The translations under genes were made by a program, and so were the position numbers. A DNA stretch of 64,000 nucleotides, taken from positions 1 to 64,000 of the IMG/VR virus record IMGVR_UViG_3300004369_000643. One strand, 5' to 3'. The stretch comes from a virus. Each line of letters opens with the position of its first letter. Position 1 is the stretch's first letter. The notes beneath the pieces are model-generated. The model was given only the letters and a program-made list of their open reading frames with translations. It was not told where the DNA came from and did not search any database. This document shows positions 4,252 to 32,583 of the stretch, piece by piece.

Positions 4252-4971
4252 TCAGACTTCTGCGAGTCCTGCCTCCGCAGAAGCCACGACTTCGTGGTAG
4301 TCGATGAGCCGGTCACGAACGTCGTCGTGGATTTCGTATGCGTCGTCGTTATCCCAGTCGAACCCTTCGGGCAGATGGTCGGAGAAACTTCCGCAACTGT
4401 CGAACAGCCTGCCATCTCGGACGACGAACGCACCGATGAAGTCCATGCCTTCTTCGACGTAGTTACCGGAGATGGTTACCCCAAACTTCTGGCTTACTTT
4501 CTCCCAGAGAGGTAGGGCAGGTGACCATGCCGTGTTGCCTGAGATGTGAATAACACCCTGTTCGGGGTGGTAGTCGTAGCCTGTCACTTCCATGCTCCAC
4601 TTCGTACCCCAGTTGGCGTTAGCCCATGAGTACCAGTCTGAGTAGCCTGTCTCAGCCTTAGCACGGTTAGCGTGTTCGATGAGAACGGCGTGTTCTGCCT
4701 TGTCCTCGGCATACTTCTCGGCATCCCAGTATTCGTTATCGGGGTCGTTCACCCACTCCATGATACGACCGTCGGGGTCGTACTCATCGGAAGGAGCAGG
4801 GGAGCGAGTACCCTGAAGCACCTCGGGCATGGGAACGAGTCGCATAGGCTGACCCCAGTAGTGGGTGTCACCAGCGTGTTCGTGTCCCTCAGACCGCATG
4901 ATGAAGTCGATGTTGTTTAGTGTTCCAACATCACCTTCGATAGTTACAGTATTCCAGCACCAGTTAGGCAT
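4252..4971 (-). CDS. DUF1281 / YubB (Api92-like) ferredoxin-fold protein
   Basis: MPNWC-x-N start, WYSW...NWGTKW and TAWSP motifs. Confidence 0.8.
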   Translation of the reverse strand: MPNWCWNTVTIEGDVGTLNNIDFIMRSEGHEHAGDTHYWGQPMRLVPMPEVLQGTRSPAPSDEYDPDGRIMEWVNDPDNEYWDAEKYAEDKAEHAVLIEHANRAKAETGYSDWYSWANANWGTKWSMEVTGYDYHPEQGVIHISGNTAWSPALPLWEKVSQKFGVTISGNYVEEGMDFIGAFVVRDGRLFDSCGSFSDHLPEGFDWDNDDAYEIHDDVRDRLIDYHEVVASAEAGLAEV

Positions 4972-4984
4972 GATGTGTCTCCTT

Positions 4985-5146
4985 TCAGTCGGCGTAGCCG
5001 TAGTTGTCGTAGTCGTAGCCGTCGTCGTCGGCACGGTATCCGATGCCGTCGGTTTCCCAGAGGAAATCTTCAGCCATCTGTTCCATCACTTCAGCGTCGT
5101 AATCGCTGAAGTCCTCATCTTCGTATGTATCCCATTCGTATTCCAT
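4985..5146 (-). CDS. small very acidic hypothetical protein
   Basis: AGGAGG SD; D/E/Y-rich. Confidence 0.6.
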   Translation of the reverse strand: MEYEWDTYEDEDFSDYDAEVMEQMAEDFLWETDGIGYRADDDGYDYDNYGYAD

Positions 5147-5230
5147 TGTGACCTCCTGTGGTCGGTTGTTTGGTTGATGAGTGAACCGTAACACACTTGT
5201 GCTACGGCTGTCAAATCGTGGGTGCGACCC

Positions 5231-5590
5231 TCACCAGTTGGCAGAGTCGCTAATCCATTCCCACATCTGGTCGGCATTACCCCTAGCGACGCTCTCAGGC
5301 ACGCTGTAGTAGCCTTCCTTGACTCGGATGCCCTTGTCCCTAATGGAACCGATTACATCACGCCAGACGGCTAATGAGGGGGCATAGAACGAGAACCAGA
5401 GTTCCATCTCACCCTGCCACTCGTCGCCGTTGTAGGGCGAGTAGTCAAGATAGTGAGGATGGTAGAGATGAACACCGTCGCCGGTGAGCAAGGGAAGAAC
5501 CTCGTTCAGCAGTTCCCTGCCAGTACGACGGTCGAACCACTCCAGCATCATGATGCCGAAGCCGGTTTCGGTGGCGGTGGTTGCTTCCAT
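5231..5590 (-). CDS. hypothetical protein
   Basis: AGGAGG SD, own promoter. Confidence 0.65.
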   Translation of the reverse strand: MEATTATETGFGIMMLEWFDRRTGRELLNEVLPLLTGDGVHLYHPHYLDYSPYNGDEWQGEMELWFSFYAPSLAVWRDVIGSIRDKGIRVKEGYYSVPESVARGNADQMWEWISDSANW

Positions 5591-7907: not shown

Positions 7908-7953
7908 GGGGGATTCTGGTGCCACGTTCCCCCGAACGCCGATTCTTAGTCGG
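7908..7953 (-). ncRNA. hairpin + pseudoknot motif, copy B
   Basis: UGGCACCAGAA linker; GGGGG/CCCCC pseudoknot. Confidence 0.6.
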
Positions 7954-7967
7954 TTATGACGCTAGTG

Positions 7968-8129
7968 TCAGAGCCACTCGAAGATATCGCCGTCTGCGAT
8001 TTCTGAGTAGTCCAGACCCTCGGCGTCGGCAAGAGCGTGCCAGAAATCATCTTCTGTCAACATCCCCCGACGCTCTACGGCGTCCCAATTCACGTGATCA
8101 TGCCACGTGTCTCGGTTGGAACTAGTCAT
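7968..8129 (-). CDS. 53 aa acidic hypothetical protein
   Basis: manual translation MTSSNRDTWHDHVNWDAVERRGMLTEDDFW...; GGGGGTGA SD. Confidence 0.6.
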   Translation of the reverse strand: MTSSNRDTWHDHVNWDAVERRGMLTEDDFWHALADAEGLDYSEIADGDIFEWL

Positions 8130-8206
8130 ATTGTCACCCCCTCTCTGGTGTTGGTTGGTTTATCTATCATCATTATGCCATAAGGGTGTAACACCCCCCT
8201 TAGGAG

Positions 8207-8253
8207 CCGGTAGTTCGGTTGCCACGCCTACCGGAGCGCCGATGCTTAGTCGG
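8207..8253 (-). ncRNA. hairpin + pseudoknot motif, copy C
   Basis: loop CCGGUA pairs with UACCGG. Confidence 0.6.
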
Positions 8254-8280
8254 GGATCTGAGTGGTATGTAGCCACTAGG

Positions 8281-8313
8281 CTACGGCGGTACCACAATTA
8301 CGATAATAATCAA
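8281..8313 (-). CDS. minigene MIIIVIVVPP*
   Basis: AGGGGGTGA SD, TTG start; paralogous to 16014-16049. Confidence 0.55.
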   Translation of the reverse strand: MIIIVIVVPP

Positions 8314-8402
8314 GTGGCATCACCCCCTATCCGGTTCTTCGGGTTCATGTATTCATTGTTGCATACGGATGGCCCGCCGGTCAAATCGTAGCCATAGTTC
8401 CT

Positions 8403-8596
8403 AGAGATAGGGGTATCTCTCGGAGAGATAGGTGAATCGAACGTATGTTCGACGAACGTATGTTCGATGTTAGGTGACCTTAACACCGATAATTCCGATC
8501 AGATTAGTCGGGATATTAGGTGCGCCTAACATTGACAATCCCGATCAGATTAGTCGGGATATTAGGTGTCCCTAACATGGCGAACGCATGTTCGAT
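8403..8596. promoter_or_regulatory. operator array 1: CsoR-like site, 3 LexA boxes, 3 IdeR/DtxR-like cores, 2 IscR/Rrf2-like boxes
   Basis: CGAAC-N4-GTTCG at 8438, 8453, 8581; TTAGG-N4-C(C/T)TAA at 8470, 8516, 8562; CCGATCAGATTAGTCGG twice. Confidence 0.75.
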
Positions 8597-8838: not shown

Positions 8839-9215
8839 GTACCATCACCCCTTTCGTGGTTGGTGCGAATGGTTGGTAGTCTTTCAATCGGCTCCCCCGC
8901 ACTTCCTGTGGCACTACCTGTGCTGGGTTCTGTAGCCGTATCTTTTATGTACCTTCATACTATCGTTGGGGTGTGACAGTACCAACCTGCGGGTAGGGCT
9001 GTAACACGATTGTAACATTCACAAAAATATCCAAAAAAGTTTGCAAAAAAAGGTTGACAAACACGGGCGGGCGGGAAAGTTCGCAAAAAGTGTCGCATTT
9101 ACGAACGATTCGTGCAGCGGCAGCACGGCGAGACAGTCCAGCCGCCAAGCAGCAACTGCTGGACTGTTTCAGGGTAAACAAAAACCCCTCAGGCCGTAGC
9201 CCAAGGGGTAATGTT

Positions 9216-9637: not shown

Positions 9638-9690
9638 CGCAGCCAACTCGCAGCCAACTCGCAGCCAACTCGCAGCCAACTCGCAGCCAA
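9638..9690. repeat. 11 bp tandem repeat CGCAGCCAACT x ~4.8
   Basis: direct reading. Confidence 0.9.
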
Positions 9691-14618: not shown

Positions 14619-15026
14619 GAGAGTCATCCTATCGAATACGGCGGGACTTGTCAAGAGTGTCAGTAATCGGTATTCTACCACCAAATATGTACGAATAGTG
14701 AAAAGTATTAGTGTAACCTAGTTTTATGACTACGATGCAACGTTTACAAGCAGCAACTTTTGTTGCTTTTTGCTGCGAACCTGATATAGTGTGGCGAGAT
14801 ATTGCCGAACTACTGTGCTTGGGATATGAGCCGGTCGATTTCGATGTGTCCCAACTGGTCAGCGAGTCCCGCAGCGGGATACTCGCCTGACTTCTCGCAG
14901 CCGCTGCCGCAGCCAAACCGTGCTGCTCGCAGCCGAACTCGGTGAAAACTTCCAACTTTTTGATGTTTCTTCGCTGGGGTGTTGGTACAGGTTGCGAAAC
15001 CTGCCCCCTGCTGATATACTGGACTC

Positions 15027-15305
15027 ATGATGAAACACTATTACATAGGCATCCGCATGATGGCTGACCGTATCGGTCTTGACCCTTGGGATGTTCACCT
15101 GCCTACGTTGCGCACGTTCGTTCGTGACGCTGAGGGTGCACCCACTTCACGGTTCTGGTTCGGTTCCCCTTGCCGGTTTATCCGATCGGTGGACATCGCC
15201 GTTCACGTTTGGTTGCCCGATGCACTCATGGAGCGCCACCCTATGCTAGCGTGCTACCTGCGCACCACTAGCCCCCGATGGGGTAAGGCATGGAGGTCGT
15301 GGTAA
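15027..15305 (+). CDS. hypothetical protein
   Basis: leaderless ATG 6 nt after TATACT. Confidence 0.55.
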   Translation: MMKHYYIGIRMMADRIGLDPWDVHLPTLRTFVRDAEGAPTSRFWFGSPCRFIRSVDIAVHVWLPDALMERHPMLACYLRTTSPRWGKAWRSW

Positions 15306-15841: not shown

Positions 15842-15940
15842 CTGTTCTTTCCTTTCTTCTTGATACTGTCATAGTATCAGCGAGGTGTGTCGATCACAAC
15901 CTGTCTCGGTCGATGTAACACGACTGTAACAAAGTGGGTT

Positions 15941-15986
15941 GACCGGTTCTGTTGCCACGCTCCGGTCAGCGCCGACTCTCAGTCGG
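15941..15986 (-). ncRNA. hairpin + pseudoknot motif, copy E
   Basis: loop GACCGG pairs with CCGGUC. Confidence 0.6.
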
Positions 15987-16013
15987 GGGTGGTGAGGTGC
16001 TGTAGCCTCACGG

Positions 16014-16049
16014 CTACGGCGGCTCCACGATTATGATGATCATCATCAA
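16014..16049 (-). CDS. minigene MMMIIIIVEPP*
   Basis: perfect AGGAGGTGA SD, TTG start. Confidence 0.55.
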   Translation of the reverse strand: MMMIIIIVEPP

Positions 16050-16144
16050 GTGGAATCACCTCCTGTCCGGTTCTCTTTCATGACTTCATCTTACCGTTCC
16101 CCCCACGTTCGACAACCTGTGCCGACCGATTTTGTGTCTCTAGT

Positions 16145-16719
16145 AGAGATACCCCCTATCTCTGATAGATATGGGGCGGCTCACAGCAGGAAGGCACGGC
16201 ACTCGCCGTGCTACTCGCCTGTCGGCGGGCGAACCGACCGAGTGTAGATCGGCACCCCTCATGTCAAGTCGAAGCAATCGAACACATGTTCGATCAGAGC
16301 CGACCTCACCCGACCGAACACATGTTCGATCCGACCGAAACCCGACCGAACTAGTCGGGAATCAAACCCGACCAACCTAGTCAACAATCAAAAGCCGACC
16401 AACTAGGTCAACAATCAAACCCGACTGAACTAGTCGGGAATCGAAACCCGACCAAACCAGTCAACAATCAAAAGCCGACCAACTAGGTCAACAATAAAAG
16501 CCGACCAGAACAGTCGGGAATCAAAGCCGACCAGAACAGTCGGGAATCAAAGCCGACCAAACCGGTCGGGAATCAATCGAACACACGTTCGATCCGAACG
16601 AGAACGTGAACACAATCACAAAGCGAACACATGTTCGATCAACAACACCAACAATCGAACAAACGTTCGATCAACCAAAGCCGACCCCAATGTTACAGTT
16701 TGATGACAAACTTGACAAA
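16145..16719. promoter_or_regulatory. operator array 2: CsoR-like site, 5 LexA boxes, 9 tandem IscR/Rrf2-type boxes, PhoB/OmpR-like direct repeats
   Basis: CGAAC-N4-GTTCG at 16279, 16315, 16578, 16624, 16656; CCGAC-N7-GTC(GG/AA) x9 at 16338-16573. Confidence 0.75.
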
Positions 16720-16822: not shown

Positions 16823-18709
16823 TCATGGTTTGGTGTTGAGTATGTTTTGGATTGCGGTTTGGGTGATGGCTGGTTGTGTTTTTTGGGTTTTGTTTTGTAG
16901 GGTGTTGTAGATGTGTTGGTCTATGGTGTTGGGGTTGATGAGGTTGTGTATTGTGGCGGGTTGTGTTTGTCCGATGCGGTGGATTCGGGCGCAGGTTTGG
17001 TGGTATTTGGCGGGTGTCCATGGGGCTTCGATGAAGAGCATGTTGTTTGATGCGGTTAGGGTGTGTCCGTGTGCTGCTGCGTCTATGGAGATGACGATGT
17101 TTTTGCAGTTTGTGTTATTCATGAATTCGTGTTTTGCGGTTTCGGTCTTTTGGGGGTTTTGGCCTCCGATGATCATTGGGGCGTTTAGTTCGTTGGCTAG
17201 GGTTTGTACTATGTGGCGGTGGTGGGCGGCGATGACTATTTTTTGTCCTGAGTTGTTGGCGTTTTCGATCCATTCTAGGGCGTGGGGGATTTTGGATTGG
17301 GCGGCGATTTTTCTGAGTTCTGTGAGTTGGATGAGGTTTTCGTAGTTTTGTGTTGCGTAGTGTGCTCGGATTCGGGCGGCTGTGGGGTTGGTGCCTTCGT
17401 TGATGGCGAGTTGTTCTTGTTGTTGTGTGTACCATTCTTGGAGGTCGTTGAGGGCGTGGTTGTACATTGTGCGGTGTTTTTTGTCCATTGTGGTGTGGAT
17501 GGTGTTGTATGTGATTGGTGGTAGGTCGGTGAGGACGTGTTGTTTTTCTCTGCGGATGTAGCAGTGGGTTTGTAGTTTGTTGAGTAGTTCTTTGTTGTTG
17601 GTTGATCCGTGTATTTGCCAGTGTCCCCAGTTGTCTCTGTAGGCTCCGCAGTAGCGTTTGTAGAAGTTCCAGCGGCCTCCGAAGTTGTCGATGTGTCCTA
17701 GGATTTCTAGTTGGGGTGCGTATTCGGCGGGCATGTTGGTGATGGGGGTGCCGGTGAGGAGTAGGATGTTGCCGGTGGTTGGGATGTTTTTTGCTATGTT
17801 TTTGGCGGCTTTTGTTCGTTGTGCGTCTGGGTTTTTGCAGTAGTGTGATTCGTCTAGGATGAGTGTGTTGTGGTGTTGGTTGTTGAGGTGTTGTTTTTGG
17901 GCGTGGATGTTGGGGTATCCGATGATGGTGTAGTCGGTTTCGGTCAGTTCGGGGGTTTTGCGGCCTTCGATGATTTGGATGGTGCGGTGGGGGAGTGCTT
18001 CTTGGATTTTTGTTTTCCAGTCTTCTGTGAGGCTGGTGGGGCAGATGATGAGGGCGGGGTATTGGTTTGTGTATTCTGTGGTGGCTAGGGCTTGGAGTGA
18101 TTTGCCTAGTCCCATTTCGTCTGCGATGAAGGTGCGTTGTTTTTCGGCGGCGTATGCTACGCCTGCTTTTTGGTAGGGGTAGAGTTGTAGTTGTAGGTTG
18201 GGGATGGTGATGTTTGCGTCGGTTGCTTGGGTGAGTTCTTGGGCGTGTTGTGCTTTTTTGGTTTCGATTTCTGCTTGTGTTTGGATGTGTTCGGGTATGG
18301 GGTGGTTGTATTTGTTTGCCCATTGGATGAGTTCGTGTACGTTGTTGTATGGTGTTTCCCAGTGGTTGTGGTGGGGGTTCCATTTGATGCCGGGGATGGC
18401 TTTGAGTTCGTGGATTTGTAGTGTGTCGTAGGGGACGCTGATTTTTAGGATGTCTTTTTCGAGTCTTATGGTGGTAGCCCCGATTGGGTGGTCGGGTAGT
18501 TGTAGGCGTATTAGTTCTTCGTCCACGTCGATGTTCCATGAGTTGGCGAAGGATATGGCTCGTTTTAGGGCTGGGAGGGGTATTGTCCAGTGTTTGTTGA
18601 GTTTGTCCCAGCGTGCGTGTGGGAATGATGTTTTGAGGGCTGTTATTTCGTCTTTGTTGTATGGTGTGTCTAGGACGAGTTGTGTGCCGTTTAGGTAGAG
18701 TCGTTTCAT
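16823..18709 (-). CDS. SNF2-family (SMARCAL1/HARP-like) helicase
   Basis: ADEMGLGKS, LDESH, LTGTP, Q-x-x-ARIHRIGQ; N-terminal HARP-like W repeats; start at MKRLY. Confidence 0.9.
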   Translation of the reverse strand: MKRLYLNGTQLVLDTPYNKDEITALKTSFPHARWDKLNKHWTIPLPALKRAISFANSWNIDVDEELIRLQLPDHPIGATTIRLEKDILKISVPYDTLQIHELKAIPGIKWNPHHNHWETPYNNVHELIQWANKYNHPIPEHIQTQAEIETKKAQHAQELTQATDANITIPNLQLQLYPYQKAGVAYAAEKQRTFIADEMGLGKSLQALATTEYTNQYPALIICPTSLTEDWKTKIQEALPHRTIQIIEGRKTPELTETDYTIIGYPNIHAQKQHLNNQHHNTLILDESHYCKNPDAQRTKAAKNIAKNIPTTGNILLLTGTPITNMPAEYAPQLEILGHIDNFGGRWNFYKRYCGAYRDNWGHWQIHGSTNNKELLNKLQTHCYIRREKQHVLTDLPPITYNTIHTTMDKKHRTMYNHALNDLQEWYTQQQEQLAINEGTNPTAARIRAHYATQNYENLIQLTELRKIAAQSKIPHALEWIENANNSGQKIVIAAHHRHIVQTLANELNAPMIIGGQNPQKTETAKHEFMNNTNCKNIVISIDAAAHGHTLTASNNMLFIEAPWTPAKYHQTCARIHRIGQTQPATIHNLINPNTIDQHIYNTLQNKTQKTQPAITQTAIQNILNTKP

Positions 18710-19587
18710 GTTCTGTTTTTGGGGTAGGGGTAGGTTTTGTTGTTTTGTTCGAATTGTTTTTTGAGTTGTTTGGTTTCTTTTTTGTTTTGTCCTAAGATGA
18801 GTGCGTATTTGTGTTTTGCGGGTACTTGTACGGGTGTTGCGTTTGCTTGTACGGTTTTGCTGTGTTGGCGTAGTTGTTGTTCGATGTGGTCGGGTATGTT
18901 GTTCCAGATGATGGTGCTGTCTCTGTTCCAGTTGGGTTGCCATTCGATGTTGAGTTCTTTAGCGTATTTTTTGTATGCTGATCTTGCTCGGAAGAAGCGG
19001 TCTGATACGACTTTGCCTGAGTAGGGGTTGATGTAGCGGGTTGTGCCGCCTGAGTTTTGGCCGAGGTAGTAGAAGTTGCAGGCTTGGTATACGGTGCCTA
19101 GTTCTTTTGCGAGGGGGTCTGAGTAGGCGGTGAATAGGCGGTATTGTGTGTTTTGTACCATCCATTTAATTGACCACATGATGAAGGCGCTTGCAAGGTT
19201 TTTGGGTGACCATGAGATGCAGGCTCCTCGTCCGATGAGGCGTTCTATTTCTTTTGTGTTGTCGCCTAGTAGTTTGCTGAAGGCGTTGGGCATACTGAAT
19301 AGGAGTACGCCTGCGAGTTGGTTGTTGTGGTATGCGCCGAACCAGTGTGTGGTGTAGAGGCTTGTTGTGCCTAACCATTCGTGGCGTTTGATGAATTCTG
19401 TTGCGTCTTTGTGTTCTTGTTCTGTGGTTAGGGGTGTGAATGTGAAGTCGTTGACTGTGAGTAGTTGTGCTTGTTGTAGGGTGATGCCTGCTTGTTGTAG
19501 GTCTTCGTCTAGGTTTTGTAGACGCATTTCGTATTGCCAACAGTGTTCTTTGTTGTATGCCCGTAGTTCGGGGATTGTGGGTGTCAT
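18706..19587 (-). CDS. Mom-like GNAT-fold DNA modification enzyme
   Basis: FIKRHEWLG, PKNLAS, AYSDP...GTVYQACNFYYLG motifs of the Mu Mom family. Confidence 0.7.
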   Translation of the reverse strand: MTPTIPELRAYNKEHCWQYEMRLQNLDEDLQQAGITLQQAQLLTVNDFTFTPLTTEQEHKDATEFIKRHEWLGTTSLYTTHWFGAYHNNQLAGVLLFSMPNAFSKLLGDNTKEIERLIGRGACISWSPKNLASAFIMWSIKWMVQNTQYRLFTAYSDPLAKELGTVYQACNFYYLGQNSGGTTRYINPYSGKVVSDRFFRARSAYKKYAKELNIEWQPNWNRDSTIIWNNIPDHIEQQLRQHSKTVQANATPVQVPAKHKYALILGQNKKETKQLKKQFEQNNKTYPYPKNRT

Positions 19588-31608: not shown

Positions 31609-32583
31609 TCAAATCGTATCGTAAATCTTAGTCGCAATTTCTTCACGAACATCAACGTTTTCATCCAAATAGGCTTTAGTGTTTACACGGCCTTGACCAA
31701 TGTTTTCACCGTTGTACGCATACCAAGCACCCTTCTTGTCAAGAATACCCAAATTAACAGCGATATCCACGATATCTCCAGTTCGGCTGATTCCTTCACC
31801 GTAGGTAATTTCAAATTCTGCTTGTCGGAAAGGGGGAGCAACTTTGTTCTTTACAACTTTGACACGAGTCTTGTTTCCAGAAGCCTCTCCACCGTCTTTT
31901 AATGTTTCAATACGTCGAATGTCCATACGTACCGAAGCATAAAACTTCAGAGCCTTACCTCCGGTTGTTACTTCAGGCGAACCGAACATTACACCAATCT
32001 TTTCACGCAACTGGTTAATCATAATTAACGTTGTCTTTGAGTGGTTCAGGTTTGCGACAATTTTACGCATCGCCTGTGACATGAGTCGTGCGTGCAGCCC
32101 AACATGACTGTCTCCCATCTCACCTTCAATTTCTGCACGAGGGGTCAAAGCCGCAACTGAGTCAACCACGACAACATCAAGCGCACCTGATTCAATCAAC
32201 TTGTTTGTAATAGTTAGAGCCTGCTCACCTGTGTCGGGCTGTGATATTAACAAGTTGTCGATGTCACAACCAATCGCTTTAGCGTAGATAGGGTCAAGTG
32301 CGTGCTCTGCATCAATGAATGCACACTTACCGCCTTGCTTCTGAGCCGCTGCGATGACATGTAGAGCGATAGTGGTCTTTCCTGACGACTCAGGGCCATA
32401 GATTTCGGTCACTCTTCCACGAGGCAGACCGCCAACGCCCAAAGCGATGTCAAGAGCAATTGAGCCGGTTGAGATTGTTTCTACATTCATTGATGCGTTG
32501 TCCCCAAGGCGCATGATTGAGCCTGTACCAAACTGCTTTTCAATTTGGCTGATTGCGTCTTCTAAGAGTTTTTCTTTATCCAT
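31609..32583 (-). CDS. recA: recombinase A
   Basis: [33 protein letters not shown]. Confidence 0.98.

Follow-up and report, generated by a model that had tools for sequence, protein, structure and literature searches.

Host LexA sites in phages are already known: the Bacillus thuringiensis phage GIL01 relies on the LexA protein of its host (PMC6182141). Phage genomes of the Alphaproteobacteria are enriched in CtrA boxes, which has been read as 'lytic deferment', a coupling of infection to the state of the host (PMC9437464). In phage T5, untranslated repeat regions among the small early genes contain palindromes, nine DRD repeats, and eight DnaA boxes (10.1101/866236), and the DnaA-box repeat regions have been proposed to pause or anchor the entering DNA (Davison, 10.1101/866236). 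Here we describe a gene-free locus, array 2 (positions 16145-16719), in a window of 64,000 nucleotides that comprises positions 1 to 64,000 of the IMG/VR virus record IMGVR_UViG_3300004369_000643. Array 2 is a dense row of predicted, consensus-grade operators for two host regulators that are absent from the gene set of the phage.

Like GIL01 (PMC6182141), this phage lacks its own repressor, and putative operators for host LexA lie near its early/replication promoters; its LexA box is of the Gram-positive/actinobacterial CGAAC-N4-GTTCG type. Unlike GIL01, it has five boxes in this array and eight in the genome, which are clustered in gene-free arrays and flank the sites of another regulator, and no gp7-like partner or lysogeny module was identified. 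The resemblance to T5 (10.1101/866236) consists in several gene-free regions of palindromes and direct repeats that lie among small early genes and hold sites for host proteins, and in the DnaA boxes that relatives of the phage have at the same locus. In contrast to T5, the genome studied here is without DnaA boxes, and its sites are those predicted for LexA and a metabolic repressor. The phage shares with the CtrA-box phages (PMC9437464) an enrichment in sites of a host global regulator, but the CtrA sites are scattered over promoters and are not placed end to end in tandem. Finally, clustered high-affinity sites without a target gene recall chromosomal DnaA titration (PMC12371093) and synthetic tandem decoys (PMC3322331), the effect of which depends on copy number. 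These precedents are cellular or synthetic, whereas array 2 is virus-borne, involves more than one regulator, and is a possible sink.

Setting of array 2 and its LexA boxes

The record (102,594 bp, estimated to be 69% complete, with a GC content of about 47%) is that of a large uncultured phage of actinobacteria. A search against 50,697 phage records gave no DNA-level matches to cultured phages, and the window contains neither tRNA genes nor Rfam families. The primase-helicase and SNF2 proteins are ~30% identical to their counterparts in Arthrobacter and Gordonia phages. The phage encodes a full-length RecA (31609-32583, minus strand; Pfam 1e-137), whose nearest matches are RecA proteins of Acidimicrobiales, Acidimicrobiaceae, Aquihabitans, and Ilumatobacteraceae (67-74% identity), and from this similarity and the operator motif described below we infer that Acidimicrobiia are the candidate host clade. 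Genes for SSB, a Rad52-like protein, thymidine kinase, and ThyX lie near the phage recA, which has no SOS box ahead of it.

Array 2 is situated within ~980 bp without a credible gene, bounded by the 3′ end of the SNF2 helicase gene (16823-18943, minus strand) and by a small leftward unit starting near 15930. SNF2 is the last gene of a leftward replication/modification module to the right of array 2, which also includes Mom-like, PhyH, HDAC-like, ThyX, primase-helicase, SSB, thymidine kinase, and RecA genes, and array 2 stands just beyond the SNF2 3′ end. To the left of array 2 are small genes with recurring promoter- and terminator-like words, and the sole gene within ~1 kb downstream (leftward) is a 44-aa ORF. 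The SNF2 and Mom-like genes (16823-19587, minus strand) have an extremely A+C-rich coding strand (for SNF2, A 40, C 37, G 12, and T 11%, with a + strand GC skew of 0.49) and are surrounded by genes of ordinary composition. This bias is common to relatives of the phage (L005-L015 and L054, 4900-5213), several of whose contigs break within SNF2.

Five LexA-type palindromes had been claimed for array 2 in a sequence-only reading, and all five proved to be perfect copies of CGAAC-N4-GTTCG. They are located at 16278-16293 (box 1, TCGAACACATGTTCGA; palindrome core from 16279), 16314-16329 (box 2; core from 16315), 16577-16592 (box 3; core from 16578), 16623-16638 (box 4; core from 16624), and 16655-16670 (box 5; core from 16656), the last of which is ~20 nt downstream of a promoter-like -10. 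When up to one mismatch is allowed, the window contains 13 matches to this palindrome compared to 2.07 ± 1.45 in shuffles. Perfect copies number only eight in the 102,594-bp genome, and all are inside two non-coding arrays: three in array 1 (8438, 8453, and 8581) and five in array 2. The phage box matches the actinobacterial LexA consensus tCGAAC-N4-GNNCGa derived from Streptomyces ChIP-seq (PMC9380542). Moreover, of 80 recA loci from the top Acidimicrobiia matches and other Actinomycetota, 47 have GAAC-N4-GTTC in the 400 nt ahead of the gene. The LexA reading was thus supported by the match to the actinobacterial consensus, by the box ahead of recA genes of the candidate host clade, and by the retention of boxes beside SNF2 in relatives (see below).

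We therefore take the five palindromes to be predicted operators of host LexA; a phage protein of equal specificity is the alternative. A LexA DNA-binding domain, an S24 domain, an Rrf2 domain, and DnaA domain IV were not found among the proteins encoded by five phage genomes, and no tyrosine integrase was found in the same five genomes. Because the phage encodes neither of the two regulators, the DNA of the array would work via the host's own proteins.

Nine tandem units and a sulfur regulon in Acidimicrobiia

The nine tandem units of the form AAA(C/G)CCGAC-N7-GTC(GG/AA) that had been read in array 2 are present, each 26-27 bp long, with LexA boxes on both flanks. A tandem-repeat search and a PWM derived from host sites place nine predicted 25-bp Cys/Met-regulon operators end to end at 16338-16573, within a tandem repeat that spans 16338-16576. 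TRF gave a period of 26 and 9.1 copies, and the spacing from unit to unit is 26, 27, 26, 27, 27, 26, 26, and 26. CCGAC-N7-GTC occurs nine times on the + strand of array 2 and 17 times on both strands of the window, compared to 1.64 expected. Five units have a full dyad (GTCGGG; starts at 16338, 16417, 16497, 16523, and 16549), and four are half-dyads with a GTCAAC arm (starts at 16364, 16391, 16444, and 16471). Together, the 14 sites fill 305 of the 394 bp (77%) between the outermost LexA boxes. At a higher order, units 1-3 recur as units 4-6 in an 80-bp repeat (88% identity), and unit 8 is an exact copy of unit 7, which implies that part of array 2 was amplified recently. An exact iteron search of IMG/VR returned single chance matches only. 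A tandem-pair search matched a coding repeat of the collagen-like type and a single AT-rich hairpin pair that is unrelated, and both were rejected.

The units had been labelled IscR-type. They match the E. coli IscR type-1 consensus ATASYYGACTRwwwYAGTCRRSTAT (PMC3899308) at 19-22 of 25 positions, compared to 9.2 ± 2.3 for random 25-mers, and share its GAC-N7-GTC spacing. Thus, the architectural part of that label stood: the units resemble Rrf2-family operators such as IscR type-1 sites (PMC3899308) in their 25-bp dyad, GAC-N7-GTC arms, and A/T flanks. Its implied Fe-S regulon of isc and suf genes did not stand, since the host contexts are sulfur and Cys/Met genes.

These contexts come from Acidimicrobiia genomes. 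Plain CCGAC-N7-GTCGG, counted in five candidate genomes, occurs at only 2-5 times the frequency of the reversed control; these counts are mostly GC-rich coding matches, and a flank-aware pattern was needed for that reason. The presence of the motif in host promoters had been set beforehand as a refutation test, and the motif was indeed found there: the flank-aware pattern, drawn up after phage and host examples had been seen, matched 88 sites, spread over 47 of 151 Acidimicrobiia genomes, compared to 5 sites for the reversed control. The choice of pattern has no bearing on this control, on the additional conservation at positions that the pattern leaves free, or on the gene contexts. The host matches vary far less than the pattern allows, with the consensus A-W-W-C-CCGAC-N7-GTCGG-G-W-W-T, the same as the phage unit. 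As a conserved 25-bp operator, AWWCCCGAC-N7-GTCGGGWWT, the motif occurs in Acidimicrobiia genomes G009-G159 (for example, at loci L182-L211, L150, L151, and L164).

The first A/T-centred host match is directly upstream of a PAPS-reductase gene on an Acidimicrobiales chromosome. The second is between an Rrf2 gene and a luciferase-like monooxygenase gene in Aquihabitans, and the third, a CCGAT variant as in array 1, is between a divergent Rrf2 gene and a gene for an SsuA-like binding protein. In 30 fetched host loci, the operator is 10-150 bp upstream of genes for MetY-like Cys/Met PLP enzymes (10 loci), DUF4395 proteins (4), CysK-like enzymes (3), and, once each, PAPS reductase, SsuA-like, ThiF-rhodanese, FolD, TauD, aminotransferase, AhpC, and RibD_C proteins. 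At least 19 of the 30 loci adjoin genes of the cysK, metY, cysH, ssu, or tau type. Further contexts are cysH and, separately, a siroheme-synthase-like gene in G009, and a CysK-like gene in G007. Unlike IscR sites, the Acidimicrobiia sites were not found ahead of isc or suf genes, none of which is downstream of the operator in ~35 annotated contexts. The gene content (cysK, metY, cysH, ssu, and tau) is instead what a repressor of cysteine metabolism would control, as in the CymR cysteine regulon of Bacillota (PMC2869319). The link to DUF4395 may point to a sulfur-related role for that family.

We conclude that the nine units are predicted operators of an Acidimicrobiia regulon for sulfur assimilation and Cys/Met, and not for Fe-S. 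For the site identities as a whole, five host LexA boxes and nine operators of a Cys/Met repressor that is probably of the Rrf2 family, our confidence in this assignment from motif matches and gene contexts is high. The Acidimicrobiia sulfur regulon with its 25-bp operator was apparently unreported, as far as we found. The GC content of the motif-bearing host loci is 52-74% compared to about 47% in the phage. Naming a host from 16-19-mers common to phage units and single host sites (in G009 and G023) was rejected, as such matches, although suggestive, are not significant given the motif itself. One Acidimicrobiia genome, G057, has seven TTTTCCGAC-N7-GTCGGAAAA sites with GC-rich centres; these look like a different, repeat-type element and not the sulfur operator.

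Scored with the host-derived PWM, the full phage units reach 26-33 bits, within the span of the host sites (20-36 bits), and the half units reach 12.7-15.7 bits. The two Cys/Met operators of array 1 (8491-8515 and 8537-8561) score 27 bits each. In the rest of the 102-kb genome, the best remaining match is 8.5 bits, and the shuffle maximum is 7.3 bits. The nine units differ from each other mainly at the positions that are uninformative in the host sites (Spearman -0.59, p 7e-4). The earlier claim of selection for protein binding is thus upheld insofar as unit variation mirrors the information profile of the host sites, a pattern that fits such selection.

This pattern also bears on a neutral or RNA-level origin of the repeat, in which slippage would have amplified hairpins whose role, if any, would be on the sense strand of SNF2, as a row of weak terminators or as hairpins in the RNA. 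There are eight terminator-like hairpins with T-rich tails on the minus strand compared to 1.4 expected, the GTCAAC variants still pair via G-U on the minus strand only, and the 80-bp higher-order repeat and the two identical units are also in line with slippage. However, the T-rich tails are the A/T flanks that are likewise present in host operators, and by the same wobble argument the CCGAT variant of array 1 points to the other strand. Arms that are conserved around a freely varying centre are in keeping with recognition at the DNA level, the variation tracks the information content of host sites, and the identity to a host regulon operator is beyond chance. We consider a neutral or RNA-level repeat very improbable.

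Our best guess for the regulator of the putative Cys/Met operator is a cysteine-metabolism repressor of the Rrf2 family. An Rrf2 gene adjoins the operator in two host genomes, G006 and G035. An Rrf2 orthogroup (≥56% identity to the sole Rrf2 of G009, encoded at 1804660-1805109) is present in 42 of 47 motif-positive genomes compared to 23 of 104 motif-negative genomes (Fisher p 4e-15, or 6e-9 without tiny genomes, with kinship among the genomes ignored). The 30 best Rrf2 loci show no enrichment of the motif (0.148 vs 0.107 sites per kb). The candidate Rrf2 proteins score below the equivalog cut-offs for CymR and IscR and are generic members of the Rrf2 superfamily by sequence.

Relatives, promoters, and the purpose of the array

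Eleven close relatives (SNF2 77-94% identical) were compared, every contig of which ends 0-2.2 kb beyond SNF2. Where sequence is available, LexA-type boxes are found at the same place in 8 of the 11 (1-7 boxes each); in two close relatives, the sequence past SNF2 runs into simple repeats. One relative (L009, 8000-8300) has LexA-type boxes plus 12 exact DnaA boxes, and in G001 two LexA boxes are immediately followed by DnaA boxes. In the distant relatives G002 and G003 (SNF2 ~40% identical; the G003 genome is 145 kb and 98% complete), 6-7 LexA boxes touch promoter -35 hexamers before SNF2, and there are two DnaA-box arrays of ~25 and ~12 boxes. No Cys/Met operator array was found in the relatives G001-G004 and G160, and no DnaA-box cluster was found in the phage under study. 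The site types vary among the relatives, and the locus is constant.

DnaA-box arrays of 12-25 boxes are located in L051 (G003) at 4540-5150 and 17800-17970, in L052, in L009 at 8000-8300, and in L054 at 5323-5420. One of these arrays has an 11-12 bp period and adjoins an AT-rich stretch, and in two relatives the DnaA boxes directly abut LexA boxes. A conserved 92-aa gene to the left of array 2 (15027-15305) is convergent with SNF2 here and in G003, and is co-directional with SNF2 in the close relatives L006, L008, and L014. The segment beside array 2 has therefore been inverted or rearranged.

The DnaA-box clusters of relatives, which have AT-rich flanks and lie at or close to the position of array 2, speak for a replication origin or a T5-iss-type nucleoprotein site, where a complex would start replication or would pause or anchor entering DNA. 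In favour of this idea, the replication module (primase-helicase, SSB, ThyX, and SNF2) ends at this locus, the cumulative GC skew is flat to 16 kb and climbs from 17 kb on, tandem dyad iterons resemble those of the lambda origin, and the untranslated repeat regions of T5 provide a precedent (10.1101/866236). The origin was the initial lead and was demoted once the iterons had been matched to the operator of a metabolic regulon of the host, which is not the site of a known initiator. In addition, neither a DnaA-box cluster nor an initiator gene was found in this genome, the base composition of array 2 (A 35, C 30, G 21, and T 14%) reveals no AT-rich unwinding element, and the step in skew coincides with the AC-rich SNF2 and Mom-like genes. 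An origin or entry site is thus unlikely.

The vocabulary of array 2 recurs in its sibling, array 1 (8403-8596), which contains an AGAGATA palindrome, 2+1 LexA boxes, two Cys/Met operators, and three TTAGG-N4-CCTAA palindromes. Between 8466 and 8578, the Cys/Met operator alternates with the TTAGG-N4-CCTAA palindrome at a period of 46 bp; a loose search of host genomes for the latter showed no enrichment. In array 2, the palindrome AGAGATA-CCCCC-TATCTCT is at 16145-16163, and its sibling copy is at 8403-8420. The existence of this palindrome was confirmed, but the label 'CsoR-like' that it had been given was not: GAGATA-N4/5-TATCTC is not enriched in the 151 Acidimicrobiia genomes (13 matches vs 12 for the control), and no match has a G/C-run centre. 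The palindrome probably binds a phage-encoded protein.

The TGTCA/TGTAA repeats at 16691-16719 (minus strand) also exist as had been noted, but their 'pho-box-like' label falls away. They correspond to the -35 and -10 hexamers of a promoter-like site, TTGTCA-17-TAACAT (16690-16718, minus strand), that reads leftward into array 2, and are better read as a putative sigma-70-type promoter. The same element is ahead of the LexA boxes in relative L005, and the related words TGTTACA/TTGACA reappear at other leftward promoters of the phage. A weak promoter-like site, TTGACA-15-TACACT (16241-16267, minus strand), is 11 nt downstream (leftward) of LexA box 1; its spacer is suboptimal, and it was read by eye and not called in the promoter scan.

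Downstream (leftward) of array 2 is a module of a promoter-like site, a minigene, and a stem-loop (15941-16110, minus strand). The module is duplicated, with a copy after each array (15941-16100 and 8205-8375, minus strand), and partial copies occur near 7935 and 6990 and in L006 at about 8677. Its order is a promoter-like site, an SD-led Ile/Val-rich minigene ending in Pro-Pro-stop, a hairpin across the stop, and then a stem-loop with the conserved loop GCGUGGCAAC(A/C)GAA and co-varying stems. The module looks like a leader-peptide/RNA control element. Elsewhere, a perfect 11-bp tandem repeat, CGCAGCCAACT (4.8 copies, 9638-9690), lies upstream of promoters, as do looser CGCAGCC runs at 14880-14940 and in L006 at about 9090-9140; CGCAGCC is a phage-specific repeated word.

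These promoters raise the possibility that the array acts in cis as a sensor or roadblock. Bound LexA and sulfur repressor would silence the leftward promoters and stop transcription of the SNF2 operon from reading through, and the downstream early unit would fire only under host SOS and/or thiol or sulfur stress. Consistent with this, LexA box 5 comes ~20 nt after TTGTCA-17-TAACAT, a promoter-like site that L005 has conserved, the 6-7 boxes of G003 and G002 touch -35 hexamers before SNF2, and a promoter, leader minigene, and RNA element come after array 2. Neither an integrase nor a LexA-type phage repressor was found, and GIL01 (PMC6182141) and the CtrA sites in phages (PMC9437464) are precedents. 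On the other hand, nine end-to-end operators are far above the need for repressing one promoter, and the only gene within ~1 kb downstream is the 44-aa ORF. Moreover, the wholesale swaps of site type between relatives, DnaA boxes for Cys/Met operators, leave the locus unchanged, and repression in sulfur-replete hosts would restrain the phage in good hosts. We regard control in cis as a close rival for the chief purpose of the array, somewhat less probable than the reading that follows.

The reading that we prefer, with a probability of roughly 0.4, is that array 2 is a sink for host repressors. As the phage DNA replicates, copies of the array would titrate host LexA and the Cys/Met repressor, and this titration would derepress the SOS regulon of the host and its pathway from sulfur to cysteine and methionine, to the benefit of the phage. 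The gain would lie in an open SOS regulon and in a larger supply of reduced sulfur, cysteine, and methionine. One phage genome equals the host regulon in operator number, and replication would therefore out-titrate the repressors. We favour a sink because the sites are end to end and recently amplified, have no sizeable target gene, and belong to unrelated regulators. The large fraction of the stretch taken up by sites (77%), the 12-25 DnaA boxes that relatives have where the Cys/Met units stand here, the lack of LexA, S24, Rrf2, and DnaA domains in the five phage genomes, and the phage's own RecA point in the same direction.

Several observations weigh against a sink. A limited literature search turned up no phage for which a sponge made of DNA sites had been described, and the prior is low for this reason. 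The LexA boxes that abut -35 hexamers before SNF2 in G003 amount to ordinary cis-regulation, and a promoter-like site reads into array 2 here as well. One arm is damaged in four of the nine units, the host is inferred, and the top-scoring Rrf2 loci are without motif enrichment. Binding to the array probably also gates the adjacent leftward promoters, which is compatible with an effect as a sink.

Meaning for phage and host

Phages often pursue the supply of sulfur, cysteine, and methionine with cysH-type auxiliary genes, and a repressor sink would do by regulation what these genes do by enzyme supply. Extended to the phage family (~100-145 kb, Acidimicrobiia), our tentative view is of a hypervariable gene-free locus that swaps host-operator cassettes as a sponge driven by copy number. 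In most members the swapped cassettes would consist of LexA boxes and in some of DnaA boxes, whereas the phage studied here adds the Cys/Met operator. Such a locus would reprogramme host regulons without a phage protein, as an 'auxiliary regulatory element' instead of an auxiliary metabolic gene.

No tandem metabolic-operator array in a phage was found described in a limited literature search. As far as that search shows, a tandem array of metabolic operators that is packed with SOS boxes and interchangeable with the DnaA-box arrays of relatives was not known before. On either reading, sink or promoter gating, the array yields a prediction of the host clade for an uncultured phage, and it led to an apparently unreported operator of a sulfur regulon in Acidimicrobiia. 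If promoter gating is true, an apparently lytic phage would sense damage to the DNA of its host as well as the host's sulfur or thiol status. If titration is true, phages would rewire sulfur-to-Cys/Met metabolism and the SOS response by plain DNA, and gene-based annotation and surveys of auxiliary metabolic genes would overlook such rewiring entirely.
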